A stretch of 64,000 nucleotides of DNA, taken from positions 62,001 to 126,000 of the forward strand of contig OZ237759.1 of NCBI GenBank assembly GCA_965178125.1, in the 5' to 3' direction. Position 1 is the stretch's first letter. Each line of letters begins with the position of its first letter. Shown here piece by piece: positions 1 through 64,000 of the stretch. The translations under genes were made by a program, and so were the position numbers. Source of the DNA: Bilabrum cf. latius. Its lineage: Eukaryota. The notes beneath the pieces were generated by a model. The model did not search any database and was not told where the DNA came from. It was given only the letters and a program-made list of their open reading frames with translations.

Positions 1-1702
1 CGGAGAACGCCTATGGAAATAGACAAGCAACACCTTAGTGCGGCCCTGCTGTGAAAGGCAGCGAACTACAACAATGGTGGCATGGAATGCAGCGAGACGA
101 ATCGCTCGTCACTGGCCCGCAGGGGCGCATCCGGCTGCCTTGCAGACCACCACTGCAGCCGTACGTGCAGACTGGTCCGATACCTTGCCTACAGATGAAG
201 GTTGTGCTGCGATGAATGGTCCTGCTGAGCGATGGACCGAATACACGAGCCCAGCACCAGCACAGTTCTTGGTGGCTGGGTTCCGAAAGTAAGGATGATA
301 TCGGCCTAACTTTGCGGAGCTGAAGCCCCGCCTCTGCTTGAATATATTTTCATTCAACTAGTATTGTTGTATTTGCAGGAAACTATGCGTAGCCGAGCCG
401 GGGCTAGATCCCCTGCAGGCTCAGCCTCCGCACGAGGTCGCCAAGCTCCGAAAGGTACGCGCGAGCAGTACTGCGGCAGCCAAGATCAAGGAAAACAAGA
501 AGAAATCAAAGCAGTTATTTAATATGATGGGGAGCATTTAGCAGTAGCACGATGAGCTTGAACAAAAGAAGCGTGCACTAGATGTGGAGAAGCAGCAGCT
601 CGCCGCGCTGCGAAAAGAGAAGATGTTGCTCGTGAAACTCATGCAGCATTTGGTTAGGATTGGGGTAACTGAGCGACCAAAGCCGCGCTAGACGGAACCG
701 GCCGAGCAGGCAGGAGGCACCGGTCGTCCCGGTATCCTGTCGATCCGAGCCCCTGCGTCCAAGGCAAGCGCCGATTCTGCAGGTGCCCCTGGCAGCGCAT
801 CCACACCGGGCACAGGGAGATCAATAATCCCACGCCGATCAACCCCAACAGCGGCGGCTCCATTGATTCGCCGCAAGTCCCGCCTCACGGACGCATCTCC
901 CGTGGCAGCAGGCACGCCGGCATCGAGGGGCGCTGCGGGGGCTCGGCGCGTGGACAGCCCCCTCGCCACTCCAGTGGAGAGAAGACAGGAGTCATCGTCA
1001 TCTTCTCGCTTCCCCGTAGGAACACCGAGGCGATCTGCAGAGCCATTCAGCGCGCACACACACAGAGACAGAGACAGAGACAGAGACAGGGGCAGGGGCA
1101 GAGACAGGGGCCCGTCCGTGCAACCAGTCCCCGGTCGCTCCGGGGTGAGGTCAGCGCCAAGGGCCGGGCAGGGGCGGCTGGGGCCGGGAGGGGGAGGGGG
1201 GCTCCGAGTGACGCTCAGCTCTGACGCCACCCCGGCTGAATCTGCCACAGGTGTGGGGCGGCATCACCCGGCCAGCCACAGGTTCCGTGGTTCAGGAGCA
1301 AGCCATGGCTCCAGCCTCGGGCAAGACCTGCATCGCGGTCCCTAGGGCACTGGCCCACCGGTTGGGCTATCTAGCGCCATGCCTGCCCCTGCCAGCTCCA
1401 CCCAGGCAGGCAGACCCGTGAGTCGCCCCCCGACGAGCGCGTCCTTTCGACGAGACGGGACCCAGTCAGCGGACGGCTGGGGTCGGGGTGGGAGCGGCAG
1501 CGGAGCGGCGGAGGGCTGGCACCGAGAGGCAGGGCACGGGTATGGGGGCCATGCGCACGGCCATGACAGGGGCCATGACAGGGGCCATGACAGGGACCGC
1601 GGGAGCGGCCGGGGCAGAGGCAGAGGCCGGGGCAGAGGCGGGGGAAGGGGCTGGGGCGGGGGTGGGCATGCCGGGCGGGGTGGTAGCAGGGGCAGGTGGT
1701 GA
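1..1702 (+). CDS. Hypothetical protein with coiled-coil and long R/G/H/D-rich low-complexity tail; 5'-partial, needs TAG=Gln
   Basis: The frame is open from position 2 except for TAG (20, 539, 545, 689, 1343). A GT-AG intron at 289..378 joins FRK|KLCVAEP. Coiled-coil-like GSI(TAG)Q(TAG)HDELEQKKRALDVEKQQL. Ends TGA at 1700-1702. No family recognised. Confidence 0.6.
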
Positions 1703-1815
1703 GGGGTAGCGGTGCCTGGGACCTTTGCTCGGCTGGCACAATGAATCCACACAAGACCATTCCTAGTTTATTCGATGCAAGGCAGGTGCAAGCTACATCA
1801 AGTCCCAGACCAGAC

Positions 1816-4800
1816 TCAAGCGAATGTCCTCACAATTTCCCGCCTGGCCTGGTCGTACTTGAACCCTGCCCTCCGCAAGGCATCCCCCTCCAAAAAGTCG
1901 GCGATGTCCGTGATGCCGCTCTCCTGCGCAGCCGCGCTCAGATCCCGCTGCTTGATGCGGATCGTGCCCGACTCGGCCCCCGCCCCGTCCCCGTCAAGCA
2001 GCGCGTCCAGCCTCATCTGCCGCCCCACGATCTCTCGCAGATGGAAGAGCAGCAGCTGGTCCGCATCCTTCTAGAAGTCCAGGTACTTGGAGAACTGCCT
2101 CCGCAGCGAGCGCATCACTGAGAACCGCTGGGCCTGGATGAAGCTCTCCAGCATCACCCGGATGGCCATGTTCAGGTCCGTCTCGTCCACCTGGTCCTTG
2201 AGCCCCATGCGCGCGTGTGACTCGGCCATGCGCATGATACTCTCCACGTGTCGCACCGCGATGGGGATTCCGTCGCTTACCGTGGACTCCCGGCGCAGCT
2301 CGGCATACAGCCGCGCCACCCTATCTTGGTTGATGCCAGTCAGCCGGGGCCTGCACGTGGACCGGGCATAGCCGATGTACTTGCGCAGCAGGTCCTGCGA
2401 GACCTCGGGGACCTGGCCTTCCTGGGAGGCTCCCGCCGCGGAGGCAGCCCCCTTTCCGTTCCCTGCTGCTGCTTCGTCTTCGTCCTCGTCCTCGCTGCCT
2501 GCACGGCGCTTGGGCGGGGTGCCCGGGGTCTTGTCATTCCCCGACGCGGCGGCCCCTTCCTACCCCTCGCCCCCCCCCTGTCCTTGGCCGGCCTTCCGCG
2601 CCTCCGGGTGGGACCGGCTGTGCGACCGCAGCACGTGCCTTGCGAGCCGCTCGTCTTTGACTGCATCCACCGTGTCCTGCAGGACGCACAGGATGTCGAA
2701 GCGAGACAGGATCGGATCAGTTAGCTGCACGTTCTCAGCGAACGTCTTGGCGGGGTCGTATCTGCCGCCCACCGGGTTGGCAGCGGCGATCACGGCGCAC
2801 CTGGCCTGCAGAGTGGTGACGATACCCGCCTTGGAGATGGAGATGCTCTACTGCTCCATGGCCTCGTGGATGCTGGTCCTGTCCGCGTCCCCCATCTTGT
2901 CGAACTCATCGATGAGGCAGACCCCCCTATCGGCCAGCACCAGGGCGCCCCCCTCCAGGGTCCACTCCCGAGTGACTGGGTCCTTGTGCACAGAGGCAGT
3001 CAGACCCACGGCGGAAGCGCCCTTCCCGGTCGTGTACACGGCCCGGGGAGCCGTCGTCTCCACGTACTTGAGGAACTGCGACTTGGCCACCCCGGGGTCT
3101 CCCAGCATGAGCATGTTGATGTCCCCGCGGATCCTGTGCTTGCGGTTCACGTCCTTCTCCACGCCCCCGAACATGGACAGCGCCAAGCCCAGCTTGACGT
3201 GTTCGTGCCCATAGATGGAGGGCGCAATGCTGGAGCAGAGCTGCTTGACCACGTCCGGAGACCTGGACAGCTCCTCGATGGCGTCCTTGTCCTCCTGCGT
3301 CAGGTGGTCCGCTGCATTGGCGTCCTCCCTCCTCTCGATGTAGTTCGCCTCCATCACAGTGGAGAACACGGGGAAGCCCTGCCTTGTATTGAGCCCCGCG
3401 TCATAGGCGTGCGTGTACACCCCCGTGACCTCGATCTCCTCGCCAGGCCTCGCAGCGTCAATCAGGTCACCCAGCAGCACCACCTCCTTGTAGCGGGGCA
3501 CCCGGCCAGCGGGCACCTGCGAGGGGGACTCCTGCAGCGTGATCTTCTGGTAGTTGCGGTACACGGTCTGCTCGCTGTTGAGTGTGAAGGGCCCGGCGGC
3601 CTGGCACTCGGAGCACTGCGAGATCCTGGGCTCCCCGTCGTCGCGGACCATCACGGGAGCCGTGACGTTGCCGCACCGCTGGCAGGTGAACCGGGCGAGC
3701 TTGAGCTGGGGGAACACGGAGGTCCTGCGAGTGACCACTCCGTGCACCTGAATGAGGCAGTTGAGGTGGGACTGCCTCAACTCCCGCAGGCTGTCTCGGA
3801 TGGGCAAGTGGGTGATGCGGACCACGATGTCCTCGTCTGCCGATGTGTCCTCGAGGAAGTGTGGGAAGGCCGCCAGGACGGATTCCTTGGCCACTGCGTT
3901 GAGTATGGGAAGCAGCAGCTTGGGCACGTCTGCCAGCCAGATGGCCAGCGAGGGCACCGCCTGCGTGAGGTGGATGTACGACACCAGCAAGCTCCGGGAG
4001 TTCGAGGCCACCAGCTGGCGGATGGCAGCAGCGTACACGTGCTCGTTCTTCCTGTTGCGGAACGTAGACAGGAACCATCTCTGCGTGATAAACAACGAAG
4101 GATTGAGCGAGCAATGTAAGGATGTGAGCTCCAGTTTCGACTTGACGAACAGTCCTCTCGGCTTAACCTAGCCGCATTAGGGCACTCACGAACAATCTCT
4201 TAATTTCTTGTGTAGTTGCCTCTTGCTGGACCCACTCATGCAGGGGCATGTCATACTCCTGCAGGTCAAACGGCGCATAGGCCACCTCTTCATCATCGGC
4301 CGCACCTGTCTTCGCTCGCTTGGCGGCAGCAGTTGTTTCGAACGCCTCAATATCCTCTTCGCCAGCTTCTTCATCATCCAATGCGCGAGGTCGCACGCCA
4401 TGCCGATTGTCTCGCTCATCCATAGCGGCCTCGGCTCGGGCCCGTTCACCCGCCGATAGCCCGCCGAAATCACGATCATCGATTGCGTCCGCATCGTACC
4501 TATCCAGTGCCTCAATCTTTCGATAGTCCGCCCTGTGAAGTATGTAAAAACATCGATGGTACTATACAGCCGCATACACGTGAAAATTGGGCCAGTGGCT
4601 ACCATGCAGTGACTAGATTCAACAGCGCAAGCTTGCACAACACTCACCGCATTAGGGCATCGTCCAACAGATCCTCGCCCTCAGGTTCGCTGGACGGTGG
4701 ATTCTCTGATGATGGAAGGGACCGTGCAGCAGCCTCTTCCTCATCTCTCTGCCCGCGCTTGCGCTTTCTCGAACCGTCACCTCTACCTGACTGCGATCTC

Positions 4801-4890
4801 ATACAAAATCGGCGCATGCTTGCAATAGAAGCAGTGGAAGAGATAAACTAGTTTAATTTTTGGGCAAACTTTCGAAACAGTTCTCACCAT
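1816..4890 (-). CDS. MCM2: DNA replication licensing factor MCM2
   Basis: MCM motifs [29 protein letters not shown](TAG)[10 protein letters not shown] and LSRFD, a Zn finger (CQRC..CSEC) and the MCM2-type N-terminus [12 protein letters not shown]. Introns 4081..4189 and 4533..4647, and probably 4791..4887 (alternative starts at 4802/4817). In-frame TAG at 2848, 2560, 2071. Ends TGA. Confidence 0.95.
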
Positions 4891-5037
4891 GCTTGGAAAG
4901 TGGTACCGTTTGGTGCCAACTTTGTCTTTTTTGAGCCAGCCTCTCTCAACCGGCGATTGGGCGGGCGCTGCGCTTTCTGATTTGCATTAGTTCCGCAGGA
5001 GAGCAACAGAGCCAATTCTATCTTGGCTGCGCCAGGT

Positions 5038-6789
5038 ATGGCGAGTGCTTCGTAGCTAAAGCAGCGGCTACCTGCTCCCAAGTAGTCAAGTTACGTCGTA
5101 GCTGAGGAGCAGCATGGGGAGGCCGGGCTTCCATCAACTTCAGGCCTGGCGGGTACAACGGACGCTTCCCAGCAGCTGGTGGCACATGCTGGTGCAAACC
5201 AGAGCAGACTTGTGCACGCTAAGTTTGGAGATCTTGTGGAAAGGGCTGGCTCGGATGGAGCGGTGGAGACCATCACGTAGGAGGAAGAGGAAGCGACTGC
5301 AGACCGTACGGCGGCAGCGTTGGCGAAGCTTGTCGGAGCCAGCGTAGCCGCTTCTCGAGCAGTACAGCTCCCTACGCAGTCCGAGGATAGGCATAAATAG
5401 AGCGAATTTGTGCACTACAAGCCAGACGCAGATGCGCCCGGCTTCAACCCAGCAGCAAGCCAAAGGGTGATCCGAGTGGTTGAGGCGCCCGTGGATCCGC
5501 TCGAGCCCCCCAAGTTCAAGCACAAGAAGATTCCAAGGGGCCAGGGCTCTCCACCAGTTCCAGTCATGCACGCCCCTGCAAAGAAGCTCACGGCTGCCGA
5601 CCAGGAGGCATGGGACATCCCTCCCGTGGTGAGCAACTACAAGAACCCCAAGGGATTCTCAGTGTCCCTCGACAAGCGTGCCACCATGGACGGCAGGGCG
5701 CTGCTGCAGGTCGAGGCATCTGACCGCTTCGCTGCCATGGCAGAGACCTTGCACCTCACGCGACAGGCACAGGCACGGGAGCTGGAGCTGCGCGCGGCCA
5801 TGCGCCGTCGGGAGAGGGAGGAGGCTCGCCGGGCAGAGGACGCCAAGATCAGGGAGCTGGCGGCGCAGCAGCGGGCAGAGCGAGCGGGCCTACTGGAGGG
5901 GGATGAGGAGGGCGTGGCGGGGGCCTCGATGGCTCCCACGCTGCCTGGCTTGTCGGGGCAGTCCGCGGGGGCCTCGGCGGGCGCTTCATCCTCCAGCGCG
6001 GCAGCTTCAGCCGAAGGTGCAGGCGCGGGGCAGGGGGCGATGAGCAGCGCCGAGCTGGCCCGGGAGGCCATGCGAGAGGTCAGGAAGCGGCTCCGGGCAG
6101 CGGACGAGGCAGGAGCCCCGGGGGACGATCGGGGCGGGAAGCGGGCGCGCCGCATGCCCCGCTCGAGCCAACCAGGGGACGAGGAGAGAGATGTGTCGGA
6201 GCGCATCGCGCTCGGCCTCTCCGCTGGAGGCGCGGCTGCTGCAGCGGCCCGGGGCGGCGAGGCGATGTTTGATTCCCGTCTGTTCGAGAAGGGGGCTTCA
6301 CAGGGGGGACTGGGGTCCTCTTTCGGGGCCAGCGATGATGTGTATAACGTGTATTCGGAGCCTCTGCGGACCGGGGCCGCACCACAGGGACAGTACCGGC
6401 CGCGCGGGCTGGGTGCAGGCGGGCAGGACCCGGATGCGACAGCAGCCGCGATCGACGCGAGTGCCGCGAAAAAGTTCGGCACGGGTGTCACTGGTGGGGG
6501 AGATGGCGGGGAAGACTTTGAGGGAGTGGCTGTGCGGCGCGCACCGGGCCCTGTGGTGCTGGAGAAGGCCAGCGCAGATGGCTCTGCTGCCAGCTCCAGC
6601 AGCAGCGCTGCGAGCGGCTCTGCACTCGATGCCGCTCTTAGCAGCTCTAGCAGTGGAGCTGGGGGCCGATAGTCTACCTTCGCTCACATTGGCAAGTCTG
6701 GGTTCATGCGAGCTGCAGCTGGATCTGCATCGCTGGGTGGCGAGACAGGTGGGACTTCGAGACGGAAGAGATCCATTGAATTTGAGTGA
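5038..6789 (+). CDS. SNW1: SNW domain-containing protein 1 (SKIP/Prp45), splicing factor, ~583 aa, intronless
   Basis: RVIRVVEAPVDPLEPPKFKHKKIPRG, PPVPVMH, WDIPPVVSNYKNPKG, ERDVSERIALG, FDSRLF. Single frame from ATG 5038 with TAG at 5053, 5083, 5278, 5398, 6670. Reading through 6670 restores a SKIP-like C-terminus (HIGKSGFMRA...SIEFE) ending TGA. Confidence 0.93.
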
Positions 6790-6829
6790 GTTTGAAACCA
6801 TCAATATCAGGACCGACTCTATCATTCAA

Positions 6830-13058: not shown

Positions 13059-13150
13059 TGCACCGTGGTGGGCACGTGGATTGCAAGATGTAAAAAATAA
13101 GACTGGAAGACGCTTTTGACCAGCGGTTCGTTCTGTATCATATGATCCAA

Positions 13151-14838
13151 TCACATGTACGTCTTGGGGTCGATCTTGTCGGGCAGTGCCGGTACCTTGA
13201 CCGCGAACCGCTCCTATACCGCCGCAAGCGACTTCTCGTCCGTCTCGGTGGCCACGAAGGAGATGGCCAGGCCCTTGGTGCCGAACCGACCGGCCCTGCC
13301 CACGCGATGCAAGTACTGGTCCGCAGGGGGCTCCTATGACTTGTTATCGGGCTGGGGGAAGTCGTAGTTGATCACGATGTTGACGTTCTCCACGTCGATG
13401 CCTCGCCCGAACAGGTTGGTTGCCACGAGGATGCGGGCCGTGGACCGCTTGAAGCCCGTGTACAGTTCGATGCGCTTCTTCTGCGGCATGGAGCCGTTGA
13501 TGTGGATGGAGGGGAAGTTGCTTTCCTTAAGGAGGCGGTCGAGCTCCCTGGACCGGGCTGAGGTGGACACGAAGATGACCACCTGGTTGAAGTCCAATGA
13601 GTCGAGCAGGTCAATCAGCTTGCGGTTCTTCTTCGCGTCATCCAGTTTCACGAAATACTGCTGCAGCCCGTGCAAGGTGAGCTTGCTGTCTGCGTCCACG
13701 TAGATCTCATAGGGGTCCTGGAGGAACTTGTGGCACACGGGGCGCACTTCCTCCGAGAGCGTGGCGCTGAACATCATGACCTGCTTCTCGGGGGGAGTCT
13801 TGAGGAAGATCTTTTGGACCTGCTGGCGCATGTCGGCGCCGGCCAGCATCTTGTCGCACTCATCCACCACGAAGAACTTGACCTTGTCCGTCTTGAGCGC
13901 GCCCGTCTCGATCATGTGGAACACGCGCCCGGGCGTGCCCACCACCACGTGGGGCGACTTCGCCTGCAGCTCCCGCTGGTGCACGCGGTAGTCCACTCCG
14001 CCGAAGAGTACCATCGTCTTGATGGCAGGCTCCTTCATGAACTTGCTGAAGCGGTTGTACTCGTACCCGATCTGGAAGGCCAGCTCGCGCGTGTGAGCGA
14101 GCACAATGATGCTCGTCTCGCCGTCCTTGGGGACCAGCTGGTTCAATGTGGTGAGAACGAACACGGCCGTCTTTCCCATACCAGACTTGGCCTGGCAAAG
14201 GATATCCATGCCCATGATAGCCTGAGGAATGGCCTCGTGCTGGACTGCGAACTAGAACAGGGCAGCAGGAGTCATCTGAGCGTGGTTGGCCCTATAGCTG
14301 CGGCGAACCACACATACACTGGAGGCAGTGACCAAATGAATCACCGACGAGTTGATCTGAACCTCAATCAGCGGAACGCGAGGCGCAGCTGGCAGTCGAC
14401 ATGGATGTGGGCAGGGCGCCGGTGTTGTCGGGACCTTCACGCCCGCGAGGCTGGCCTCGGCGTGCTTGAAAGAAAACGCGCCCAACTTAAAACTCACCCT
14501 CCGAAGGGTTTTCAAAGCCGCACTCTACGATGGCCTTCAGAAGATCGGGCTTCAGCAGGAAGTCGCGGAAATCGGAAGAATGCACACCAACCTGGTGGCC
14601 CCTGCGGTATCACAAAGATATACGTACAGCATGAATGGATTGATACATCTATCGGTTTGAACAGTGCCAACCAATTGACGCTTTCTCGTGAAAACGCCAC
14701 AAACAGCGCCTCTTACTTCTTCCCGGCCTTCGCATCGTCCCCTCCTTCCGCCTTATCGGCCACAGCATCGGCGGCAGCCTCCTCCTCTTCGTCATATACG
14801 AGATCTTCTTCCTCCTTCGACGAAGCAACGGCGGCCAT
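13151..14838 (-). CDS. UAP56: DEAD-box (DECD) RNA helicase UAP56/SUB2
   Basis: [75 protein letters not shown]. Introns 14602..14716 and 14245..14497. TAG at 13334 and at 13214 (AAV-TAG-ERF, conserved VQxRF). Ends TGA. Confidence 0.95.
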
Positions 14839-14992: not shown

Positions 14993-16269
14993 ATGCTTGC
15001 CAGAGTTGCGCGTTCTGCCAGGAGTTTGTCTAGCAGCATGGTGCGGTCGTCCCGCGCCATGTCCACGTCTGCCAAGGTGTGGATTAACGCCGATACGAAA
15101 GTAATGGTACAAGGATTTACCGGAAAGCAGGTGAGCGCACGAAATTCACGCTTGGAGCACCTTTGGAAGCACAGAACAAGGCAATTCATCGTATGTTTTG
15201 CTGCGCAGTGTGTTTGTTTCGCATCCAGTCTTGGTTGGTGTCATGAACTGGCCAGCAAGCCCAAGCTGCGAACCTGTCGTGCTCCGAATGGTAGCGCTCC
15301 GCGAAGATGTTTTCCAGCCGTGTTTCACACCAATTGGCTGACCAGGACACTATAACATCTCACTGCATTGCATGCCGACCTTCAGCGCCAGCTTCTCTCT
15401 AGAATGCATGCAAGTCTTGGTACCGTCGCACGCAGGGCACCTTCCACAGCCAGCAGGCCATCGACTACGGAACAAACATTGTTGGTGGCACAAACCCCAA
15501 GAAAGCTGGCACAAAGCACTTGGATCGGCCCGTATTTGCCTCAGTGAAGGATTGTGTGAGCGAGACTGGCGCTGATGCGTCGGTGATCTTCGTGCCCCCT
15601 CCGCTGGCAGCCAACGCCGTGCTGGAGGCCATCGAGGCCGAGGTGCCTCTGGTGGTGTGCATCACCGAGGGTATCCCCCAGCAGGACATGGTGCGCGTCA
15701 AGAACGCCTTGCTCGCCCAGGACAAGACTCGCTTGATTGGTCCCAACTGCCCTGGCATCATTAAGCCAGGCGAGTGCAAGATCGGCATCATGCCCGGGTA
15801 CATCCATCAGAAGGGCAAGATCGGGATCGTGTCCAGGTCGGGCACGCTCACTTACGAGGCGGTGGCGCAGACCACCTCGACGGGCCTGGGCCAGTCCACG
15901 GTGGTGGGCATCGGCGGTGACCCTTTCAACGGGACGGACTTTATCGACTGCCTGGAGCGGTTCACCAACGACCCCGAGACCGAGGGCATCATCATGATCG
16001 GAGAGATCGGAGGATAGGCCGAGGAGGACGCCGCCGAGTGGCTCAAGGCCAACGGGGACCCCAGCAAGCCCGTCGTGGGCTTCATCGCGGGCCGGACGGC
16101 ACCCCCAGGCAGGCGCATGGGCCACGCCGGCGCCATTGTGAGCGGTGGCAAGGGCACTGCTGACGCCAAGATCGACGCCATGCGCGCTGCTGGCGTGCAC
16201 GTGAGCGAGTCTCCCGCGCAGATGGGCGTGCTCATGCTGGACGCGATGAAGAAGGCGGGCAAGGCCTGA
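14993..16269 (+). CDS. SUCLG1: Succinyl-CoA ligase alpha subunit, mitochondrial
   Basis: Arg/Ser-rich presequence, [41 protein letters not shown](TAG)AEE, and RRMGHAGA (catalytic His downstream of the TAG at 16015). Intron 15131..15435. Ends TGA. Confidence 0.95.
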
Positions 16270-30247: not shown

Positions 30248-30360
30248 ACTTCTGGAATATGGAGAGTAAAGGTAAAATGAATTGGGCCGCAGTCTTCGAT
30301 TCGGAGCCGCTCAAACGGAAAGGAGCCAAGGACGACAGAAATCGCTAGATATCAACCGCA

Positions 30361-51913: not shown

Positions 51914-54900
51914 ATGGCCGCTGCAAGCCTCTTTGGCCAGCGTCCACGCACATCTGTTGGAATACGCTCGCGATACGCTCGTGCTCCGCCGGCTTCTGTG
52001 CGTGCACGGGGAAGCACCAGCCAGTACAAGCGGCGGGTTGGATCAAAGCAGCAGAAATCTCGGTATAGAACGGATGCACCGCAGCAGTCCAGGCGGACTC
52101 GGCAGGAGACAATAACTGGCGATGGTAGTGGCGCAGGGGCGCGCCACGGCGCGCGCAAAGATTCAGCTGGAGTCGCGCCGCCGAAGACGGTCGGCTAGTA
52201 CAAAATTGGTCAGTGAGACACATGCACCCCGGCGTGCTAGCTGGAGTACGGCCGAATGTCCTAGACTGCTACCGGTTGCCTTGGCCTGCCCCGGTATAGT
52301 GCTTCCGTGAAGCTGCCTCGCACTCGAACGTGATCCGGTGCTGCCCATGTCTCATCTCGCAGCACTCTTGGCGAAGGCACGTTTGGAAAGGTAAAATTGG
52401 GCACCCATTTGCTGACTGGAGAGAGCGTTGCCATTAAAGTGCTCATGAAGGAACGAATCAAGACACCTGCCGACGTAGAGCGCGTGGCTAGGGAGATCAA
52501 GATTCTCAAGCGCCTGTCGCACCCGTGCGTCGCGGAGTTGTTCGAAGTGGTCGATACGCAGCACCACATATTGCTAGTGATGGAGCACGTGCCGGATGGC
52601 GAGCTGTTTGGGTACATCTGTCGTCACAAGCGGCTGAGCGAGCCGGTGGCGTGCCGCTTGCTGCACGACATCTGCGACGCCCTCGACCACATCCACAGGA
52701 GCGGTGTCTCCCACAGGGACCTCAAGCCGGAGAACATCCTGCTGCAGAGGAAACCGTCCGGGGGATACCGCTGCAAGCTCATCGATTTCGGGCTGGGAAA
52801 CACCTTCCGGCCGGGGCAGGTGCTCAAGACAGCGTGCGGGAGCCCCTGCTACGCCGCTCCCGAGCTGGTCAAGAACGTGCTGTGTAAGCAATGCAATGCA
52901 ATGCAATGCAATGTGATGCAATTCGGTGCCGTTGGGGGTGCGGTGGAGAGGGGGAGGGGATATATGTGGACACGGAGCCGAGTCTGTTCCATCCGACGCG
53001 AGCCAAACCTCCTCGCCTGCTCGCCTGCTGGCCCCGCTGGCACCTGGATTATTCCAGTGGCCCCGCTCGTGCCTCCTTTATCTTCGAGTCATCCATGCCT
53101 CTTCTCGCTTTGTCTTGCATCTTATCGCAGACGACGGTGCACGCAGCGACATTTGGTCGCTGGGCGTCGTGCTCTTCGCCATGGTGGCCGGCTTCCTCCC
53201 CTTCGAGCACGAAAACACAGCCAAGCTCTACGACAAGATCCTGCACGCGCGCTACTCACCGCCCTCCCACCTCTCCCCCATGTGCAGAGACCTCATCGCG
53301 CGCATGCTCACGGTAGACCCCAGGCGGCGCATAGACGAGGCCGGAATCAGGGCACACCCCTGGTACAGGGCAGTGGACGTGCCCCCGCAGCCCGCACTGC
53401 ACCGCCCCCGCGCCCTGCACGATCTGGACCCCCGTGCGGTGGACGAGGTACTGGCCCTGGGTATCGGGGAGCAGGAGCTGGCAGCGGGGGTGGCTGCCGG
53501 GGCGCACAACCACGCGACTGCAGCGTACGCCCTGGTGAGGCGGCAGCTGGCTGGATCCTCTGGGGATGCCTCCGGGGCGGGGGGCAGGCTGTCGGCCCTG
53601 GAGGGGGCCACCAGGAGCAGGGGCAGACCGAGCACCGCGGATCCCACGGGGGCGGGGTGGGCACCCCGGGGGAGAGAGGGGGTGCCTGCGGGGGAGCGTG
53701 CGCACGTTGCCTCGGAAACAGCCGCGCGTCGGGGGGAGGAGCGCGAGCGAGAGCACTAGGGGGATGTCCGTGGGGATGGGGTGGCGGGCGGTCGGGAGGA
53801 TCCTGGCGATACGGGCTACAGCTCTGTGAGCAGGGCAACGGCCCGTAGCACAGTGGGGGCGGGGGCTGGTGGCACCCGGCCCCGCACTGTGGGCGCAGGT
53901 GCCACCCGGGGTCGTGTTGGGACTGGCACGGACATTTTTGGACGGCGCATCGGGGGTGGGGCGGGAGTGCCTGGCGTGCGGGGTGGTGACCAGACGCAGG
54001 GAAACGGGCAGGTGCAGGGGGGAACACAGCCCTCTGATCGCGGGGCAGGTGTGGCCGCAGATCTGCGGGGCCTCGCTGCCGAGATTAGCCCGGGGTCCAC
54101 CCGAGCCACCAGTCCCAGGGCCCGAGACGTGCTGGATGGGGATGTCTCCGACGAGGAGCAGGACGAGGACAAGGGCGATGGGGGGTCCGTGGCTCGCGGG
54201 GAACATCTCGTCGGTGCGCGGCGAGTGCCGTCACCCGGCCTCAGTCTGGCGGGGGGTCTGCAGGGGGGGCGGCGGGACAGGCGAACCGCAGGAAGGGACG
54301 GAGCCGCAGGGGCGGGGCAGGGGGCGGGAGACAGACCCGTGACCGCTGGAGCCACAGTCATGCGTGGCCGGGCCGGGGGGCGTGCACCCCATCGAGAAGC
54401 GGCCCGTGTATCCGAGAGCAAAGGGGCGAGGGACCGAGGGGAAGGACCCGGCGCGCCTTCCACCTGGGGCTTCGCCGAGGATGCCGATGGAGAGTCGGGG
54501 CAGCCAGTAGAGGCTGGCCTGCGGGAGTCCGCGCTGGGGTCTACCGTGGGTGCTGCCACAACAAGGGGCACGGTGGCGGGGGCTGGAGCTGGAGCTGAGG
54601 TTTTGGAGGATAGTGGGAGGAACGTGCGCTCTGTACTGCTGGAGTCTATGGGGAACACAGAGCTGGAAGCAGGCAGTCGCCAGCAGCAGGAGAGGTAGCA
54701 CCATCAGCAGGCCCCCCCCAGCGGGCACACCCCGCCCCGGGGACTGCCCTCCTCCACGGGCTCCTCCACCTCTGGTCCTGCCGTGCCACTGCCCCAGGGA
54801 CCCCCCTCCTCCCCCTCCTCTGGTGGCGAGACAAGGACCAGAGGAGTGGGCAGCATGGACAGCGTCACCAGGGGGGAAGCTCTCGTTGACACACCGAGAG

Positions 54901-57392
54901 TTGCCACCGCTCCCGGTCCCCTTCCGCACCCCGTGTCCTCCACTGAGAGCGTGGACGTGCGGTCGCCCTCCACCGAGGAACAGGCCCTCGGCAGCGGGAC
55001 GCAGGTGCCAGCGGCAGTTGGGGGCACCACCGACGAGCCGCACTCGCAGGCCCCCGCCTCGAGGGCGCCCCGGCCTCCATAGCCCCGCACCCCTGACCGC
55101 AGGCCCCAGCCGTAGAGCTCCAGCGGATCAGCGCCGGGGCCGCAGCACCGCGCCGCCCGACTGATGCCTCCAGCCGAGCGCGGGGACAGCCAGGCGCGCG
55201 GGGCAGTGGGCAGGCATCGACCGGGGCGGCGGTTGGTGCTCCGTTCCGGTCGGGATGATTCGGCTGATGGCACCGATCGGGAGCATGAGCCGGGAGAGGC
55301 GACACAACTTGAAGGAATGGAAGCGGGAGGCGCCGCATCCCCTGGTGCAGTTGGGGGGTTCAAGTCGATGACTCCAAAGGGAGACTCGAGCACCCGGCGG
55401 AGGGTCGGGTCCCAGGACTGGGCCTTGCCGTCAGACAGGCACGGGCACGGACAGGGGCGCGGGCCCGGCGAGCAGACCCATGCAGCAGCCAGCGGCAGCA
55501 GACAACCCCCGTCCCCGAGTGCAGCGCGGCACCTGCGCGGAATCGGTATGCAGATGCAGGGTCCGGTAGCTCGCCAGCCGCTGCGAGCGTGGGACGACGA
55601 GGCGCCCTCGTCACATCGAGAGGGTGCCGCAGCCGCCGCCGTGCCATTGACCGATGAGCAGCAGGCCGGCGTGCCTCCCTTGCCCATCGGGCCATGGGCT
55701 GCCCCCGAGGATGCGTCTGCGGGCATGGTCAGAGGGGAGCGGGCGGTGCACTCGGCTCGGGCTCCGGGGCATGGCCACGCGCGGGGATAGAGCGGAGAGA
55801 GCCATGGGAGTGGGGAGTCGGGGCACAAGAGTGCGCGGGCGAGGCGGGGCCAAGGGTACGGACAGGGACAGGGGCAGGGACAGGGAGGGAGGAGGAGGAA
55901 GGGCTCGCCCCGGGCCGGAGCTCTACTGGCTGGCCCGTGGGCGGGCGTGTCTCGCAAGGTGGTCGTGCCCAAGCCAGGGCACCAGGGGGGGTACGGGTAT
56001 GTCCGCTCCTCCGGGTATGGCCAGGGCCAAGGCAGGAAGGGACAGCATGAGGGAGATGAAGACGAGGATCTCGGTATCGGTAACGATCGGTCACAAGTAG
56101 GTCTGGAGTAGAGTGAGAGAGGCCCGAACTAGTCATCCAGCCGCAGTCGGAGTCGCAGGGGCAGCGGGCGCAAGAAGGCCCGCAAGGCCTCGGGTAAGGG
56201 TAAGGGCAGCCGGTCGGTATCTCCTCGCGCGCGGGGGCGGGCCGCCGGGCCTAGGAGGGATCGGCTGTCGTCCATGGGCAGCCAGCAATCTTCGAAGGAG
56301 AGCGCGCTGTCACATGGACAGGGGCAGGGGCAGGGGCGAGGGCAGGATGTGGCCGCGGGTGGGCGAGGCATCGCGGCCCGGGCCTCGCCGAGGGCGCAGG
56401 CGGCGCTACCGGGGGGCCGGCGGGCCCGTTCGGTGTCCCCTAGGGCGCGGCGGGGGGCAGAGTCGGGGGTCGGCTGGAATGGCCCTCGGGAGCAATCGGC
56501 AGACGCAGAAACGTACCATCGGCCTGGCAGCGCGCGAGCATTGGAGGACCGGGGGAGGCAGCGGGCCCTGCGGCAGAGGCAGGCGCTGCATGTGGCCGCC
56601 TCGAGGGCCCCTCCAGGGGTGGAGGTGCGGGGGACATCCTCGGGACACGCTGCATTTGTGTATCCGAGTCGGGGAGCCGCGGGCGGCCCCGGGCCCAGCG
56701 TGCCCGGTACAGGTGGAGGAATCGGAATCGGAATCGGCGCGGGGCGGTACTCGGCATACGGGGGCGGTCCCCATGGTGGGGTCACGCCCGGGTCCTCGTT
56801 CGCCCCGGGGTCATTGGGGCTGCCGGGGGGCAGGCGGGTGATGCCAGCAGCAGCAATCGCTGCCTCCAGGGGGGCAGCAGAGGCAGGGGTGCCCAGCCAG
56901 CACCGCACGGATGTGGGTGCGCGGACGGGGGCTGGCATGCCCAGGCCGCCGGTACGGGCGGGTGCGGGTGCGGGTGCAGGGGCGGGGGCTGGTGGAGGGA
57001 CCGGGCATGCAGGGGCGGGGGGCCGGCCTGGGCGGCGCCTTGTGTCAGCGGGAGGTCGGCGACCTGGGCATGGGGCGGGTGTGACGAATGCGAGCCGCCC
57101 ACAGACGTCTCACGGGCACCACCACGGGCACGGGCATGGGGCTGGTCCGTGGGTGCCCTCGTCACACGGAGGGGGCGGCCCGACGAGGGTGCAGGAAGTG
57201 ACTCCCTGGGGAACAGAGGCGATCGGGAGCAGCAGAAACTAGTAGGCAGTGGGCGAGGACTACAGACTCGTGGTGGGGGGCGGGCAGGACGGATCGGGCA
57301 CGGGCAAAGGAGCTGCTTCGCGACTGATGGCTAGGCCGGGGGGGAGGGACAGCGGCGGGACGGGGGGGACGTACAGTGCCGTGGTCCATTGA
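51914..57392 (+). CDS. SNF1/AMPK/MARK-family (CAMKL) Ser/Thr kinase with UBA-like segment and very long disordered tail, ~1,690 aa
   Basis: KTVG(TAG)YKIGH|TLGEGTFGKVKLG, VAIKVL, HRDLKPENILL, DFGLG, LKTACGSPCYAAPE, Y|DGARSDIWSLGV. Introns 52213..52362 and 52884..53130. Ten TAGs (52196, 53757, 54696, 55080, 55113, 55788, 56109, 56130, 57240, 57243). First TGA at 57390. The kinase domain is certain, the extent of the tail less so. Confidence 0.85.
52888..52922 (+). repeat. (GCAAT)n pentamer microsatellite in kinase intron 2
   Basis: GCAATGCAATGCAATGCAATGCAATGTGATGCAA directly after the GTAAG donor. Confidence 0.85.
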
Positions 57393-57688
57393 ACATGAAC
57401 CTAGAGGTGTTGAGGCGTGTCCGGTGATAATGATTGATCCGCACGAATCTGACCGATTGGCAGGCGATGGACTGCAGCATCCGTTGCAGCTTGCGCGATA
57501 CTCTGTGGCTCGGAGGCGGAGCAGGCAACCGGGCAGCCGCCATACCAGCCTGGTGCTGGTGCGACGCAGCTGTAGCAGCTTCAACGGCACCAGCCCACCA
57601 GTGTGCCCGGAGTATAATTCATTGCACTGCTGTGCTACCCATGTGGCAACTGCACAGCGCGCAGAGCTTGTTGCGCTTGTCTTGAAGG

Positions 57689-59617
57689 ATGCGGTCTTTG
57701 GTATTTGCCGCCGCACTAATTGGAGCGCTAACTTGCTTCTCAGGCGCCTCGCCCCTGCCCGACCGAGCCGCGCTTGCATCCATCATCAACGGTACACTCC
57801 AAGGATCCACCTCTCCGCGAGAGCATTCACTCTCCGGCAAATACCCCGCAACACCCCTAGACACGTACGTTACCAAGAAAGATCCTGCCTTTCATTGGAA
57901 CCTCGCGCCAACATGGTCAAAGAAGGGCGACGGGTGGTCGGCAGTGCTGCTAAATGTAACATCGCAGAGCTGGCTGAATTCTAGCGCTTGGAGCTACTCA
58001 GACGGCGCCCCTGGTGGTAAATGGTGGCACCACGTTCTTGTTGTAGTTCCTGATAAGCTGGTAGTCACTGATACGGCGTTTGTATGGATTGGAGAGGACG
58101 ACAACGCGCCATCGCAGCACCCGGACGACGGTGGCTTGGACCTGACCGTCGCCACGACGGTGGCAACGCGGATCGGGGCCGTGGCAGCCGCTTGCTACTT
58201 CATTCCAAACCAGCCGGTGAAGTTCTCGTCCGAAACCCCTGTGCCCCGGTCCCGCGAGGAGGACGAGGTGATCGCTTGGGGATGGCACGAGTTCATTTCC
58301 AAGGGGCAGTCCACTGACTGGATCCTCCGTCTCCCAATGACCAAGGGCGTGTTTGCTGCCATGGATGCTGTGGAGGCGTACACCGCTTCGGAGGACTACC
58401 GCACGCGATTCGCAGCGCCGCTTGCTCACGCCGCCACACTACGCTCCAACAGTGGCGCCGAATCCGAGTCTAAGGCGACAGATCCGGATCCGGTGTCCCG
58501 CTGGATCGTGTCAGGTGCCTCCAAGCGAGGGTGGACCACCTGGACGGTGGCGGCCGTGGACCAGGCGCTGTCTTCCCCCCGTGTGATCGGCATGATCCCG
58601 GTTGTCATGGATCTCTTGCAGATGTAGCGCTCCTTGCACCACGACTACCGCTCCCAGGGCGGATGGTCCTTCGCGTTCAAGCCCTACTACGAGGCCCCCG
58701 TCAATTTAACGGAGCTGTTGGACTCCGAGGGTGTGGCGAGGCTCGCAGCAGTGAGCGATCCGTACGTCTACATCGACCGCTATGCCAATCTTCCAAAACT
58801 GGTTATGAACGCGCTAGGGGATGAGTTCTTTTCCCTGGACAACGACATGTTTTGGTTCGATGATCTGCCCGGGGAGAAGTTCCGGCTCATGCTCCCCAAC
58901 GCCGAGCACTCTCTGGCCACCGCCGAGCAGCAGGCAATCGACGGCGCGGCTGCCTTCAGCCTGGCAGTGGTGCACGACCTACCCCGCCCCTCCCCCTCCT
59001 GGCAGTTCTCCGGGCCCAGGCCAGAGGGGGCGCCCGTTCCTCCGGGCGGATTTCCCAGTTACGGGACCGGCGCCGCGTCAGGTGACCTCACGTTCCGCTG
59101 CCAGGGCGAGGGCGCGCAAGGAGGGGCACGGCCAGGGGCCCAAGTTGAAGCTGCTTCCCCCACCAATGTGACCGCGTGGTTCGCATATTCTGCCAGTGGC
59201 ACAGGCAGGAGGGACTTCAGGTTGGCAGCGGGGTATCCCAAGACGGAGCCGCAGCTGGTGCTCTGGCTGCCGTACGACCTGACCGGGTCACCCAGCGGGC
59301 CCTGCGAGTGGAAGGCGCAGGCCCCCGAGGAGCAGAAGGGGCAGTGGGGCGGGCTCATCATCGACACACGGTTCCCCCTGCAGTCGGGATGCGGCAAAGC
59401 GGGTCAAGGCGTCAGGGGCGCGGCCACTCGGCCTGCCAACGAGGGTGGTGCCGCTGCGCTGGACACGTCGTGCCTCGCGCCAGGGGCGGCCATGGTGCTG
59501 CGGAGAGCGGTCGAGGCCGGGCTGGAGTTCGATATCACCAGCACCGTGTCAATCACGCCAGCGACATACCCTTTCCCGGACTGCAAAGGCAGCACCTGCA
59601 AAGGCAAGCTCCTGTGA
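57689..59617 (+). CDS. Secreted PqaA/AprA-family (PhoPQ-activated pathogenicity-related) alpha/beta-hydrolase-like protein
   Basis: Signal peptide MRSLVFAAALIGALTCFSGA. Motifs TPLDTYV, LNVTSQSWL, IPNQP, REEDEVIAWGW, LPMTK, VSGASKRGWTTW, MDLLQM(TAG)RSLHH, GDEFF, LPNAEHS. TAG at 58625. Ends TGA. Confidence 0.85.
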
Positions 59618-59933: not shown

Positions 59934-62900
59934 TCAAGAAGCAGATACCTTGGATTTCTGCGCGCTGCTTCCTTCCGACGCTGCCCCACCGGAAGCTGAT
60001 GGCAGCGGATATCCCCTATCCACTCTCTCCTGCTCGTCCATCAAGTCCACGACAAGCGTATCATAGGAAGATCGCGCTGCTTGCATGGACGGATCAACGA
60101 GCGCAGCTCTGGCGAGGTCTATGCGTCGCACCCTCGAGTCCCAGCCGTCGCCGAGGAGGGCACCGCTGCTCTCGCGAGCTGAGCCACCCTAACCCCCCGC
60201 GCCCGCTCCAGCCGGGCCATCGCCATCCTCCATGGCGACTTGCCCCTTCACCCCGGCAGCACCTCCACTATTGCCTCCCGCTCCGGCAGCCGCTCCCTTG
60301 CTGCCCGCTCCCATTTCCACTTCCACCTCGTCCATCACCGCGTCCTGCTCTGGGCCTGCGGTGAATCCAGCCGCGGCCAGCAGACCGTCCAGCGACTCGC
60401 GCGCGTCCTCCCGCGACAGGAGACCCTGGCTGTACAATTTCCGCAGCTGCTGCGCCACGACTCCGTGCAGCCCTCCCCGCAGCGTGCTCACCCGGCTCTG
60501 CCACGCCCGGGCTGCGCGACGACCCACCGCGAGCACCACGGGGGACGCGCCCTCTGCACCCGGTCCCGGTCCCGACCCCGACCCCGATCCCGATCCCGCC
60601 GCTGCGCTCGCGCTCTGCCCCTGCCCACTGCCCTGTCCCTGACCCCTCCTCTGCGCCTCACACGCCTCCATGGCCTGCTGACCCCTCCGGGCCGCCCGCA
60701 GCAGCGCCCTCCCCGGCTCCAGCTCGGCCAGCATCCCCGGGGCCCATACCCGCAGGAACCACGAGGCCAAGGAACACGCCTCATCCGGCCGCTCCCCTTG
60801 GCTGAAGAAACCGCGAGTGGACGCGGCAGATGCTGCTGCTGGACTCTGCATGGGCCCGGCCCCGGCACCGGCCCCGGCACCGCCACTCTTGCCTGTCTTC
60901 CCAGTCTTGCTCGAAGCGATGGAGGCCCCTTCCCACGCAGTGCCGTCTGCCCCCGTGGGCGCGCCCCCTCCCGCTCCCTGCGCGTCAGCCTGCGTCCTTC
61001 CCACCATGCAGGCGTTGACCAGACGCACGGCGGTGGGCACCAGCACATGCAAGAAGCTTAGGCCAGCCTCCACGCGAGCGGGGCCTGGGCGCGATGACGA
61101 TGACGATGACGACGACGACGACGATGACGATGATGATGATGATGATGCCGCGCTCACCCCGCCCAGGGCCCCCTCAGTGCCCGACACTCCCAACACAGCG
61201 CCACCTCCGCCTCCCCACTCCTATTCGGCCCAGTCCCCCGGCACCCCCTTGGGTCGGAAGAGGGCCAGCAGCTCCCTCAGCTGAGAGACCTGCTGGTGCA
61301 GCTTGGGCAGCACGCACATGCGAGCCAGCACCAGGGAGGGCCCCACCGCGTGGGAGCCGGCCGCAGCGGCCATGGCCCGAAGGGCCTTCTCACCGGCGGG
61401 GAGATAGAAGGCGCGCAATGGAGCCTGCTGCTGCTGCGCGCCTACTCCAGAGGGCGAGCCCACAGGGGAGGCCCTATCGGCGTCCTCCCTGCCGGCGAGT
61501 CGGGCCGCCAGCAGCGCAGCCTCCCCTCCTTGGCCCAGCCTCGCCCGCGCCGCCTCCTCCTTCCTCCCCCTGGCCACCTCCGCGGCGGCCTGGAAGCCCC
61601 TGGTGGCCGCCGCCCGCTGCTCGATGTCCGCGAGCACGAAGAAGCGCTCCACCCGGCGCAGGCACAGCCACAGGGACGGTGGCGCGAAGTCGGTCGCAGG
61701 CACTGGAGCAGAGCCCGCCGCGCCGCCCGCACCCGATCGACCCGCGGGCTGCGTCGTTGGCGGGGCCCTGATTTCGTGTGCAGCGGCGGCGCCCAGCAGA
61801 AGGGCCAGCGGCCCCCCGAACGCGACCGCCTCCATCCTCAGTGCGGCTGCCCTCCGGCCCTTGGGAGTCCCCCTCAGCCTATCCCTGGGCTGGGAAAGGG
61901 CCCGGAGAGCGTTGATCGTCAGGATAGAGGCAGCCCTGGCCATGCGGGGGGAGGCCAGGAGGCACCGCGCGTGCCGCAGCGCGGCAGACCCGATGCCCCG
62001 CCCCGTGCCGGTTGCCTTGCCCCTGCCCAGCCTCTTCTCCGCGACCTGCTTGTCAGCCAGGAAGCACTGCACCAGCCCGTCCGCATGCACCGTGTACTGG
62101 TCCTGCGGCCCGTTGAATATCGCCGAGTTGTTCCTCATCAGCCGCACGTCCGCCTCGAGGTGGTCAAAGTCGCGGTACCGGCCCTTTTTCACGCCCGCCA
62201 TCAGAGTGGAGAGGTCCATCGGTCGCTTGACCACCTGCCGGTAACGATCGCACACAGCCGGCTGGTCCGCCACCAGCTCCAGCACTGGCCTGGAGAAGCT
62301 CCCGTGGGTGTCCCGCTTCCTCATCGCCTCGATGGCCCGCTCCATGGCGGCCCTGAGCTTGGCGCCGGCAGAGTCGCTGCCACCTCCACCACTTCCTCCT
62401 CCTCCTCCTCCCTCCGCCTCGGCCGCGCGCACCAGCTTGCCGAGCTGCAGCGCCGCCGCAGTGATGTGCTGCGCCTGCGGCTTGGGCCTGCTGGCCAGCT
62501 GCTCCACGGCAATGGCCAGCCCGAGGCAGGGGTCCTCCTTGGCCGAGGAGGGGTGCCCCTTGTCCTGCAGGTACAGGGGCAGCCAGGCACGGGCCGCGGC
62601 GTACACGGGGCTCCTGGTGGCCTCCCACGCCTCGACCAGCACCTGGAGAACAGCCGCCAGGAGGGCGGGGTGCTCGGTTGCAACCGGCAGCAGCGGCTTG
62701 AGCAGCGTGTCGCGCTCGCGAGGAGCACGGGCCGCGGCTCGTCGAGAGGCGGCCTGCGCGGCTGCAGTAGAAGCCCTGCGGCGAGGTGGAGGGACATAGA
62801 GGGGGTGTGGCGGCGATGCGGTTGCTCGTGTGGGTGAGGGGTTGGGAGACGGAGGGGACTGCAACCAGCGCGGCGCGGCATGGGCAGCTGTGGACGGCAC

Positions 62901-63632
62901 TCGCGGTGCAGGTGCTCACTGCGTGACGAGGTGCTCCTGATAAAAGGAGCCCAATGACTGCACCAATTTAGGGGTGCAGAGAGCCGGTTTCAACGCCTCC
63001 CCCACGATGCGGCGCACCGCGTCCGGGTGGGCGAGGAGCAGCCTCCTCCGGGCCAGGGGCGGGAGCTTCGCGAGAAGGTCTGAGCGCTTTGAGATGGCCT
63101 TTTGTAGGGAGCTGGGGAGAGAGTCAGTGGCAGTCAGCGGCGCTGAAGGCGGCAGCAATCGTTGCAGCAGCGCCCGCTCGGCCTGAATAGCTCGAGGCAG
63201 TCGCAGAGGCAACAGATATAGCAGCAGGGACATCACCACGGGCTCCTCTAGCGATGCCGCCTCTCTCTCAATAAATTTTGAGCATTCCGACGCGACCCCA
63301 GCCATAGCACGCTGGGCATCAATGCCAGCGTATGCCAGCAAGGGGACGCCGTCCGCCATGACTGGTCGTCTCGGCAACACGATCGGACCTGCTCTTTCTG
63401 CCAGTGCTCTCGGGCCTTCGCGCTGCACTATAGATCGAACATTTTCAAACAGACGCCTTCCCGCCAGAACCCCAGCCGGTGGGGCGCTGGGATCCACGGG
63501 CGGCTGTGGCACTCTCCGGACCTTTAGTTGTGAGGCATTAGAGGCCCTACCCGCCTTGCTTGTTTCCGAAGCAGCCGGCTTGGGGGGAACAGACCCCCCG
63601 GTCGCGTCCTGCGCAGCCCGGGGGGCCGCCAT
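59934..63632 (-). CDS. NELF-B/COBRA1-like protein with an internal bromodomain, ~1,180 aa
   Basis: Bromodomain FSRPV...YRQVVKRPMDLSTL...YRDFDHLEADVRLMRNNSAIFNG at ~62060-62360. Flanks resemble NELF-B (WEATRSPVYAAARAWL...EDPCLGLAIAVE). Intron 62776..62919. TAG at 61221 and 60189. Ends TGA. Confidence 0.7.
61094..61147. repeat. (GAT/GAC)n trinucleotide repeat encoding poly-Ser on the minus strand
   Basis: Directly visible within the NELF-B-like CDS. Confidence 0.9.
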
Positions 63633-63791
63633 TACGACGGCGGTCCGAGAAGCAGGGCGTGTTTAGCGGATTTGGGCATCGCCAACTTTGACTTCTATAG
63701 CGTGCAGTTTGGGATGAAATCGGATCAACCATTCGGAGCAGAAATAAACCGTTCTCTCGATTGCACTTCTTTCCAGGCAAGTATCACGCCA

Positions 63792-64000
63792 ATGCAGGCT
63801 CTTGCGGCAGCTGAATCAGCTGTACTTTCGCCAGAGGATGCAGACAGCTGCACATGCTGCACATGTAGCTTGAAATTTCCCAGCCATGACGAGGTACGGG
63901 CGCACTACCAAACAGAGTTGCACAAGTTTAACTCGAAGCGTCGTGGCGTGGGATAGCCACCGGTTACTGGGTAGGTCTTTGAAACGGCAAGACGGGCCGC
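63792..64000 (+). CDS. REI1/ZNF622-like C2H2 zinc-finger protein (60S maturation), 3'-partial
   Basis: TCCTCSLKFPSHDEVRAHYQTELHKFNSKRRGVG(TAG)PPVTG(TAG)VFE matches the Rei1-type N-terminal finger (CxxC...RxHY.T.WH.YNL.R.....PPV). TAG at 63954 and 63972. Confidence 0.75.

Follow-up and report, generated by a model that had tools for sequence, protein, structure and literature searches.

Does UAG end translation in this organism, or is it an ordinary codon of its nuclear genes? The question is raised by a 64,000-nucleotide stretch of contig OZ237759.1 (assembly GCA_965178125.1, Bilabrum cf. latius; positions 62,001 to 126,000), which we call the window. An earlier note, made from the sequence alone, had counted about 80 in-frame TAG codons in about 23 of 26 gene models of the window and had proposed that UAG is reassigned to glutamine throughout the genome, as in NCBI table 15. 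Our analysis bears out this decoding: spliced transcripts carry the TAG codons, three of them fall on glutamine columns, codon decoding favours glutamine by a margin of about 26 bits, and the genes whose ends are fixed by homology close with TGA. We consider it very likely that UAG codes for glutamine in this organism. As for the genome-wide part of the proposal, what we describe is UAG as glutamine within one 64-kb window.

In-frame TAG codons and the ends of genes

We recounted TAG codons in the 20 longest frames, bounded by TAA and TGA only. These frames hold 16,057 codons, among them 77 TAG (4.8 per 1000), 541 CAG and 82 CAA, so that TAG makes up about 11% of the glutamine-type codons. TAG occurs in 19 of the 20 frames, which is close to the earlier count, and all seven positions that had been singled out (2848, 13214, 30439, 30209, 28398, 5083 and 52196) hold TAG on the coding strand. 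Not all of the 77 are coding: some belong to introns or 5' flanks in which the frame remains open by chance (4168, 14252, 15292 and 15400 are examples), which brings the coding total down somewhat. The longest frame has 803 codons with TAG as a stop and 3687 with TAG as sense; it is unchanged with TAA as sense. Frame length alone is not decisive, because TGA, the commonest stop triplet, lengthens frames too when it is read as sense.

A test that uses no homology gave a clear contrast. A codon-usage score was trained on five transcript-supported housekeeping exons and applied to every stop triplet in six frames; a triplet was taken to lie in coding context when the 25 same-frame codons on each side were coding-like and free of TAA and TGA. 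With a threshold of more than 3 bits per side, 20 of 742 TAG triplets qualified, compared with 0 of 359 TAA and 0 of 1492 TGA (Fisher's test, TAG vs TGA, p = 2e-10; TAG vs TAA, p = 5e-4). Lowering the threshold to more than 0 bits per side gave 35 TAG, 1 TAA and 4 TGA. The 3687-codon frame contributes TAG 36362, 38249, 38936 and 42803 at the higher threshold and TAG 36152 at the lower one, and codon usage is also coding-like on both sides of TAG 58625 in a PhoPQ-related protein and TAG 61221 in a bromodomain protein. Transcript-supported sites in SNW1 score negative in this test. Because weakly biased genes are undercounted in this way, we limit the use of the score to the contrast between TAG and TAA or TGA. 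Additionally, essential motifs 3' of TAG are intact, as had been noted before: the GHAGA motif of SUCLG1 follows TAG 16015, and a UAP56 motif follows TAG 13334.

The ends of seven genes are fixed by homology (MCM2, UAP56, SUCLG1, CDC48-like, eRF3, CFAP298 and SNW1), and all seven are TGA. UGA remains a terminator. Among the 20 longest frames, 17 end in TGA and 3 in TAA. Past the TAA that closes the 3687-codon frame, coding potential falls from +4.7 to -13.8, and no in-frame TAA was found in the homolog alignments or in the coding contexts; nor do TAA, TGA or TTA occur in frame within the four aligned genes. UAA probably terminates as well.

These gene ends bear on the possibility of an ambiguous code, in which UAG would be glutamine inside genes and a context-dependent stop in some of them, comparable to the codes of Condylostoma and the karyorelicts, or to UAA in Blastocrithidia. 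Such a code could go undetected here, since the contigs give no 3' ends, transcript ends are not visible in the window, and a terminal TAG is read through by construction in frames bounded by TAA and TGA only. Three TAGs are coding-like upstream only (22207 and 56098 on the plus strand, 49850 on the minus strand), and the tails of several frames, such as those of the WD40 protein and the kinase, are not coding-like. However, none of these three TAGs stands at the end of a recognized gene, and the seven homology-fixed ends are TGA at the expected place. TAG 13214, which occupies an invariant glutamine, sits 21 codons before the UAP56 stop and does not act as one. We regard an ambiguous code as unlikely.

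The residue assigned to TAG

Fetched homologs were aligned to the window by tblastn, and MAFFT sets were used for column counts; homologs more than 80% identical and two near-identical relatives were removed before log-odds were computed. The earlier note had placed several TAGs on consensus glutamines, and three of these sites proved to be conserved for glutamine. At MCM2 2848 (EAMEQ-TAG-SISISK), glutamine is present in 120 of 120 homologs by tblastn and in 33 of 33 after filtering. In the alignment with MCM2 in the PDB (E = 1e-236) this TAG lies opposite the Q of EAMEQQSISISK, and four solved MCM2 structures have Q there. At UAP56 13214 (AAV-TAG-ERF) the counts are 120 of 120 by tblastn and 52 of 52 after filtering. 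At isochorismatase 30439, glutamine is found in 65 of the 73 representatives that reach the site (150 were supplied) and in 121 of 135 sequences of the MAFFT set. With NCBI table 15, a full-length UAP56 was obtained.

Two other sites on the earlier list, PSMB 28398 and SNW1 5083, lie on variable columns. Five solved structures have S, E, L, Q and H at 28398, and a second TAG of this gene, 28206, is opposite K, R, K and K in PDB alignments. The SUCLG1 codon 16015 corresponds to N in the mammalian enzymes (PDB alignment). As aligned, PSMB 28398 and SUCLG1 16015 neither support nor contradict glutamine. The match of SNW1 LPAPK-TAG to LPAPTQ does not hold up, as the column at 5083 is variable: 24 aligned homologs have H (8), Y (8), S (2), Q (2), T (2), N (1) and F (1). 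The other SNW1 columns vary as well (E/A/Q, E/D, R/K), as does isochorismatase 30991 (A/S/G). The eight variable columns among the 11 alignable sites are mostly polar (G/K, K/G/R, S/G/A, H/Y, E/A/D, E/D/K, R/K and A/S). At two further sites on the earlier list, CFAP298 30209 and kinase 52196, the family residue would be glutamine according to the earlier note.

When the log-odds were summed over 11 sites, glutamine reached +15.3 bits, lysine and histidine came next at -10.5, and all other residues were lower; one TAG site with only nine aligned residues was left out of the sum. Decoding codon by codon in four families likewise returned glutamine for TAG, with a margin of 25.8 bits. Of the 61 codons with data, 57 came back with their standard meaning in this procedure; the misfits other than TAG are AAA, TCA and TGT, with 2-11 sites each and margins of 0.7-4 bits. 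Per site, TAG contributes 1.4 bits, similar to CAG (1.7) and CAA (1.3).

These results also speak to the possibility that UAG is a sense codon for another residue, such as Glu, Lys, Leu, Ser, Tyr or Trp. At the variable sites 5278, 5398, 2071, 13334 and 5053, homologs indeed most often have E, K, G or S, and codes with UAG as Leu, Ser or Glu have been described (PMC11687900). Such readings are opposed by the three invariant or near-invariant glutamine sites and by the 11-site total, in which every other residue lies at least 25.8 bits below Q. Additionally, P0001, the UAP56 protein of a 99% identical relative in a different assembly, carries Q opposite TAG 13214 (and A opposite TAG 13334). A different residue is very improbable.

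TAG codons in spliced transcripts

We compared positions 1801-21800 of the window with contigs of run X1 (whole stretch) and of runs X5, X6 and X7. Runs X5 and X7 belong to one study and X6 to another (studies P2 and P3), and both studies differ from the one that contains the whole stretch. The X5-X7 contigs skip nine segments of 86-305 nucleotides with GT..AG ends (CT..AC for minus-strand genes). These segments are spliced-out introns. Their joints are 4080>4190, 4531>4647, 7060>7151, 11129>11216, 14244>14498, 14600>14716, 15126>15432, 19027>19314 and 19691>19833.

The contigs agree with the window without a single difference. The spliced MCM2 contig covers 1884-4080, 4190-4531 and 4647-4790; SNW1 is covered over 5017-6815, and the open reading frame at 9344-10498 is matched in the same way. 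Spliced UAP56 contigs come from three runs (13122-14244 plus another exon), one contig spans SUCLG1 and the CDC48-like gene (15432-19027), and another covers eRF3 over 19833-21800 with the intron 19692-19832 removed. The coding frames covered in this way contain 15 in-frame TAG codons and no TAA, and TGA is found at gene ends only. G+C at third codon positions (GC3) is 0.83-0.88 in five of the transcript-covered frames (0.83 in SUCLG1 and 0.84 in the CDC48-like frame) and persists beyond the TAGs. UAG stands unedited in the transcripts: all 15 covered TAGs are identical in the spliced contigs. That the TAGs are untranslated, being assembly errors, parts of pseudogenes or codons edited (U to C) to CAG, has only the prior expectation of TAG as a stop in its favour and can be set aside almost entirely, because none of the 15 sites differs between the window and the independent spliced contigs of two other studies, because codon-position GC bias and conserved domains carry on downstream of the TAGs, and because the genes concerned are essential and single-copy (MCM2, UAP56, SUCLG1 and a subunit of the proteasome).

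Several runs also contain long-range joints (3972>16016, 8646>20210 and 10046>20452), one side of which matches over 20-26 letters only. Rather than rearrangements, these joints probably reflect chimeric contigs or short shared repeats.

Placement of the organism and its relatives

Maximum-likelihood trees with 1000 ultrafast bootstraps were made for MCM2 and UAP56. In the MCM2 tree the window sequence is sister to a pair formed by P0121 and Cafeteria roenbergensis (support 88/87), within a clade of 12 sequences supported at 100/98. This clade lies on the side of the brown alga Ascophyllum; fungi, animals and plants branch elsewhere. In the UAP56 tree the window groups with P0008, Cafeteria, P0012 and P0016 (support 99/82); names on the tree come from cluster look-ups, and P0008 clusters with the UAP56 of Cafeteria roenbergensis. 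The best named UAP56 matches by identity are stramenopiles (about 63%), and MCM2 of the window is 64% identical to that of Cafeteria roenbergensis. MCM2 and UAP56 lie about 10 kb apart in the window, and the Cafeteria locus tags are about 10 apart on one contig, a hint that the linkage of the two genes is conserved. We think it likely that the lineage is a stramenopile related to Cafeteria, either a bicosoecid or a neighbouring heterotrophic group, and far from Cafeteria itself. The earlier impression that this DNA is not from a ciliate is supported by the grouping of the window genes with the bicosoecid Cafeteria in both trees.

Other origins were considered. A ciliate or Iotanema origin is ruled out by composition, stop usage and the trees. 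An aphelid origin was rejected since the MCM2 tree places the window away from fungi and animals and since aphelids are described as reading both UAA and UAG (UAR) as glutamine (PMC5304391, PMC11687900).

The best named MCM2 match is labelled Symbiodinium sp. KB8 and shares a 90% cluster with the MCM2 of Cafeteria roenbergensis. Two MCM2 records carry this label (P0123 and P0480), and neither resembles a dinoflagellate sequence: one shares at least 90% identity with the Cafeteria roenbergensis protein, and the other clusters with a member of the same bicosoecid-like clade. The Symbiodinium sp. KB8 assembly probably contains contaminating heterotrophic flagellates.

In a 95% identical relative (P0241), an SNW1 open reading frame of 424 amino acids opens immediately after the site of TAG 5398 and closes at that of TAG 6670. 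These limits are as expected if the relative also has stops at the two sites and standard-code gene calling cut the gene. No full-length copy of the window MCM2 or SNW1 was found in a collection of 5.8 billion proteins.

Metagenome contigs were scanned at the DNA level, independently of gene calling, which gave 80 MCM loci. The 10 nearest MCM2 loci (55-61% identity, 5226 aligned codons) contain no in-frame stops. At the rate of the window about 21 TAGs would be expected in them, and the probability of finding none is 1e-9. Because these nearest loci lack in-frame TAG, the change seems to be confined to the organism and its near-identical relatives, and the reassignment, on this comparison of sequences, seems to be younger than the separation from the Cafeteria lineage.

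The scan also turned up other loci with in-frame stops. Ten MCM2-like loci (L016, L026, L029, L032, L035, L040, L041, L048, L015 and L020) each have several in-frame TAA and TAG codons, for instance 18 TAA and 4 TAG in L035, a pattern that fits organisms with UAR as sense, such as ciliates. The metagenome MCM2 loci with both TAA and TAG look ciliate-like and are 44-53% identical to the window. Two distant MCM paralogues at 31-33% identity, L070 (5 TAG and 1 TAA) and L080 (2 TAG), possibly represent further UAG-sense organisms, and the aligned residues are mixed. Additionally, further runs (X8-X23) contain 12-22% of the sampled words of window positions 12500-22400. Their labels name at least nine other organisms as well as 'protist metagenome' and 'algae metagenome', as would fit near relatives that are present as companions or contaminants of other organisms' cultures.

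A proposed explanation

Based on these results, we propose that a GC-rich heterotrophic stramenopile related to the bicosoecid Cafeteria uses UAG in its nuclear genes as a regular codon for glutamine. By analogy with other lineages in which UAG or UAR is glutamine, a tRNA-Gln with the anticodon CUA, one base away from the CUG isoacceptor, would read UAG. By the same analogy, recognition of UAG by eRF1 may be weakened or gone, with UAA and UGA still recognized; a decoupling of UAG from UAA is argued in PMC5304391. We lean towards the view that this is the first nuclear code change in stramenopiles, a young and independent UAG-only change to glutamine that would have arisen after the split from Cafeteria, with TAGs turning over between strains whose proteins are 95-99% identical.

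Several points weigh against this explanation or parts of it. Eight of the 11 alignable TAG sites lie on variable columns where glutamine is not the commonest residue, so the residue call rests mainly on the three invariant or near-invariant sites. Runs X5-X7 are only presumed to be RNA: none is recorded as RNA, and X5 is marked 'probably DNA'. We take them as RNA because their contigs carry spliced joints. The placement consists of two single-gene trees. Concerning UAA, none of the three TAA frame ends is fixed by homology, and the test of TAA as a stop is weak because few TAAs are expected in DNA with a GC3 near 0.85. Concerning the proposed components, the 64-kb window contains no tRNA genes (ARAGORN) and no other RNA genes at Rfam gathering thresholds. 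eRF1 is not among the window genes either. The release-factor gene present is an eRF3/HBS1-type GTPase, which does not itself read the stop codon.

Comparison with known codes

The code itself is known and of the table 15 type; what appears to be new is the lineage. The earlier note's list of UAG-only cases (Iotanema, a rhizarian and some ciliates) was incomplete, as Protocruzia, two phyllopharyngean lineages and Scotinosphaera have also been published (PMC11687900).

Iotanema spirale (Metamonada, Fornicata) reads UAG alone as glutamine and keeps UAA as its main stop (PMC5304391). It resembles the present case in that UAG became glutamine, decoupled from UAA, in a flagellate that is not a ciliate. 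It differs in its main stop, UAA, whereas 17 of 20 frames in the window end in TGA and the window has 63% GC. It also differs in affiliation, being a metamonad, whereas the MCM2 and UAP56 of the window go with the stramenopile Cafeteria. The code change in the window is of an origin independent of Iotanema. Among ciliates, Protocruzia tuzeti and two phyllopharyngean lineages have UAG alone as glutamine (PMC11687900) and share the table 15-type code with the window. Unlike these UAG-only ciliates, the window has a multi-gene contig, 63% GC, GT-AG introns of 86-305 nucleotides and a bicosoecid grouping.

Codes of the table 6 type, with UAR as glutamine, are found in many ciliates, hexamitid diplomonads, Ulvophyceae, Streblomastix and the aphelid Amoeboaphelidium (PMC5304391, PMC11687900). 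They share with the window the change from stop to glutamine, for which a mutation in the anticodon of tRNA-Gln and a modified eRF1 are presumably responsible. A table 6-type code finds no support in the window: TAA was in coding context 0 times out of 359, against about 12 expected in 16,057 codons from the CAA/CAG ratio if it were sense, of which the scan detects roughly one quarter. UAG is leucine in the rhizarian exLh and some ciliates, and serine in Scotinosphaera (PMC11687900). These codes resemble that of the window in that nuclear UAG is decoupled from UAA; they differ in the residue, which in the window is very probably glutamine. Finally, code 15 (TAG as glutamine) is used by crAss-like and other phages (PMC9523058). 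In that case a virus uses the code, together with a suppressor tRNA, as a strategy inside a standard-code host, whereas the window contains spliced nuclear housekeeping genes.

A full-text literature search, from which subscription journals are mostly absent, turned up no stramenopile or bicosoecid for which a nuclear code change has been reported. In a 2024 review of stramenopiles, the words 'genetic code' are present only in a mitochondrial reference. As the data sets are from 2025, a description may exist that is not yet published or indexed.

Outside ciliates, few nuclear genomes have reassigned a stop codon. A new independent case, in a new branch of a supergroup, would be a data point on how often each route is taken and on base composition, since this lineage is GC-rich with UGA as its main stop, the opposite of Iotanema. 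Cafeteria relatives host well-studied giant viruses and virophages, and a host with UAG as glutamine would constrain which viruses infect it. In practical terms, standard-code gene prediction would break most genes of the organism. Its growth in culture is suggested by the existence of DNA and RNA data sets in several studies. If our explanation is true, it would offer a tractable system for studying how the ribosome separates UAG from UAA. A nuclear change of UAG without UAA is known from a handful of lineages (PMC5304391, PMC11687900).

Gene content of the window

The window has a G+C content of 63% and is densely packed with eukaryotic nuclear genes, as identified by Pfam (Table 1). The gene names given earlier were borne out by Pfam (MCM2, SNW1, UAP56-type DEAD helicase, SUCLG1, CFAP298, isochorismatase, proteasome beta and kinase). 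Further genes with Pfam support are the CDC48-like AAA protein, the eRF3/HBS1-type GTPase, PRPS, the bromodomain protein and the PhoPQ-related protein. Pfam also recognizes a WD40 protein, NF-YA and a 6-phosphogluconolactonase (6PGL).

Table 1. Genes and frames of the window with their in-frame TAG codons (window coordinates)
Feature	Position	Strand	TAG codons and gene or frame end	Support
MCM2, main exon	1816..4080	-	TAG 2071, 2560, 2848; TGA end at 1816	Pfam MCM domains
SNW1/SKIP	5035..6789	+	TAG 5053, 5083, 5278, 5398, 6670; TGA end	Pfam SKIP_SNW
UAP56/SUB2-type DEAD-box helicase, last exon	13151..14244	-	TAG 13214, 13334; TGA end 13151	Pfam DEAD, Helicase_C
Succinyl-CoA ligase alpha (SUCLG1), exon	15432..16269	+	TAG 16015, 5' of catalytic GHAGA	PDB E = 3e-130
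CDC48-like double AAA ATPase	16572..19027	-	TAG 18843; TGA end	Pfam AAA x2, CDC48_N
eRF3/HBS1-type GTPase	19833..22057	+	TAG 21767; TGA end 22055	Pfam GTP_EFTU, D2, D3, eEF1A_C
Proteasome beta subunit (beta-4/PSMB2 type)	27906..28892	+	TAG 28206, 28398	Pfam Proteasome
CFAP298	29053..30245	-	TAG 29314 (main exon), 30209 (exon 1)	Pfam CFAP298 E = 7e-36
Isochorismatase-family hydrolase	30346..31017	+	TAG 30439 (ACDL-TAG-ND), 30991	Pfam Isochorismatase
3687-codon frame	36095..47158	-	9 TAG; open only with TAG as sense; TAA end 36095	
Ribose-phosphate pyrophosphokinase	49079..50788	+	TAG 49583, 49841, 50687	Pfam Pribosyltran_N, Pribosyl_synth
Ser/Thr protein kinase	52190..57392	+	TAG 52196 and 9 in tail frame	Pfam Pkinase
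PhoPQ-activated pathogenicity-related family protein	57686..59617	+	TAG 58625	PF10142 E = 4e-76
Bromodomain protein	59934..62915	-	TAG 60189, 61221	Pfam Bromodomain

Exon 1 of CFAP298 translates around its TAG as MVVIHLKKTDHD-TAG-FLFE. The kinase has an AMPK/SNF1-like catalytic domain in two exons (52330-52890 and 53130-53360), followed by a long low-complexity tail. Its three-frame translation contains VG-TAG-YKIG, GEGTFGKV, HRDLKPEN and DFG. SUCLG1 on the plus strand and the convergent CDC48-like gene on the minus strand are both carried on single transcript contigs (15432-19027), and their 3' ends abut or overlap within about 300 nucleotides (16269 vs 16572). The 3687-codon frame has no Pfam domain, and its hydrophobic stretches are suggestive of membrane segments.

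Some repeats were also observed. A 14-codon unit, DAGSRNSSSP-TAG-K, is duplicated in tandem at 8413-8455 on the plus strand, and the TAG is kept in both copies. At 26400-26900 and 34700-35050, also on the plus strand, open frames contain long perfect dipeptide repeats (Ala-Gly, encoded by GAGAGA..., and Ser-Ser-Ala), which are GC-rich microsatellites that keep the frame.

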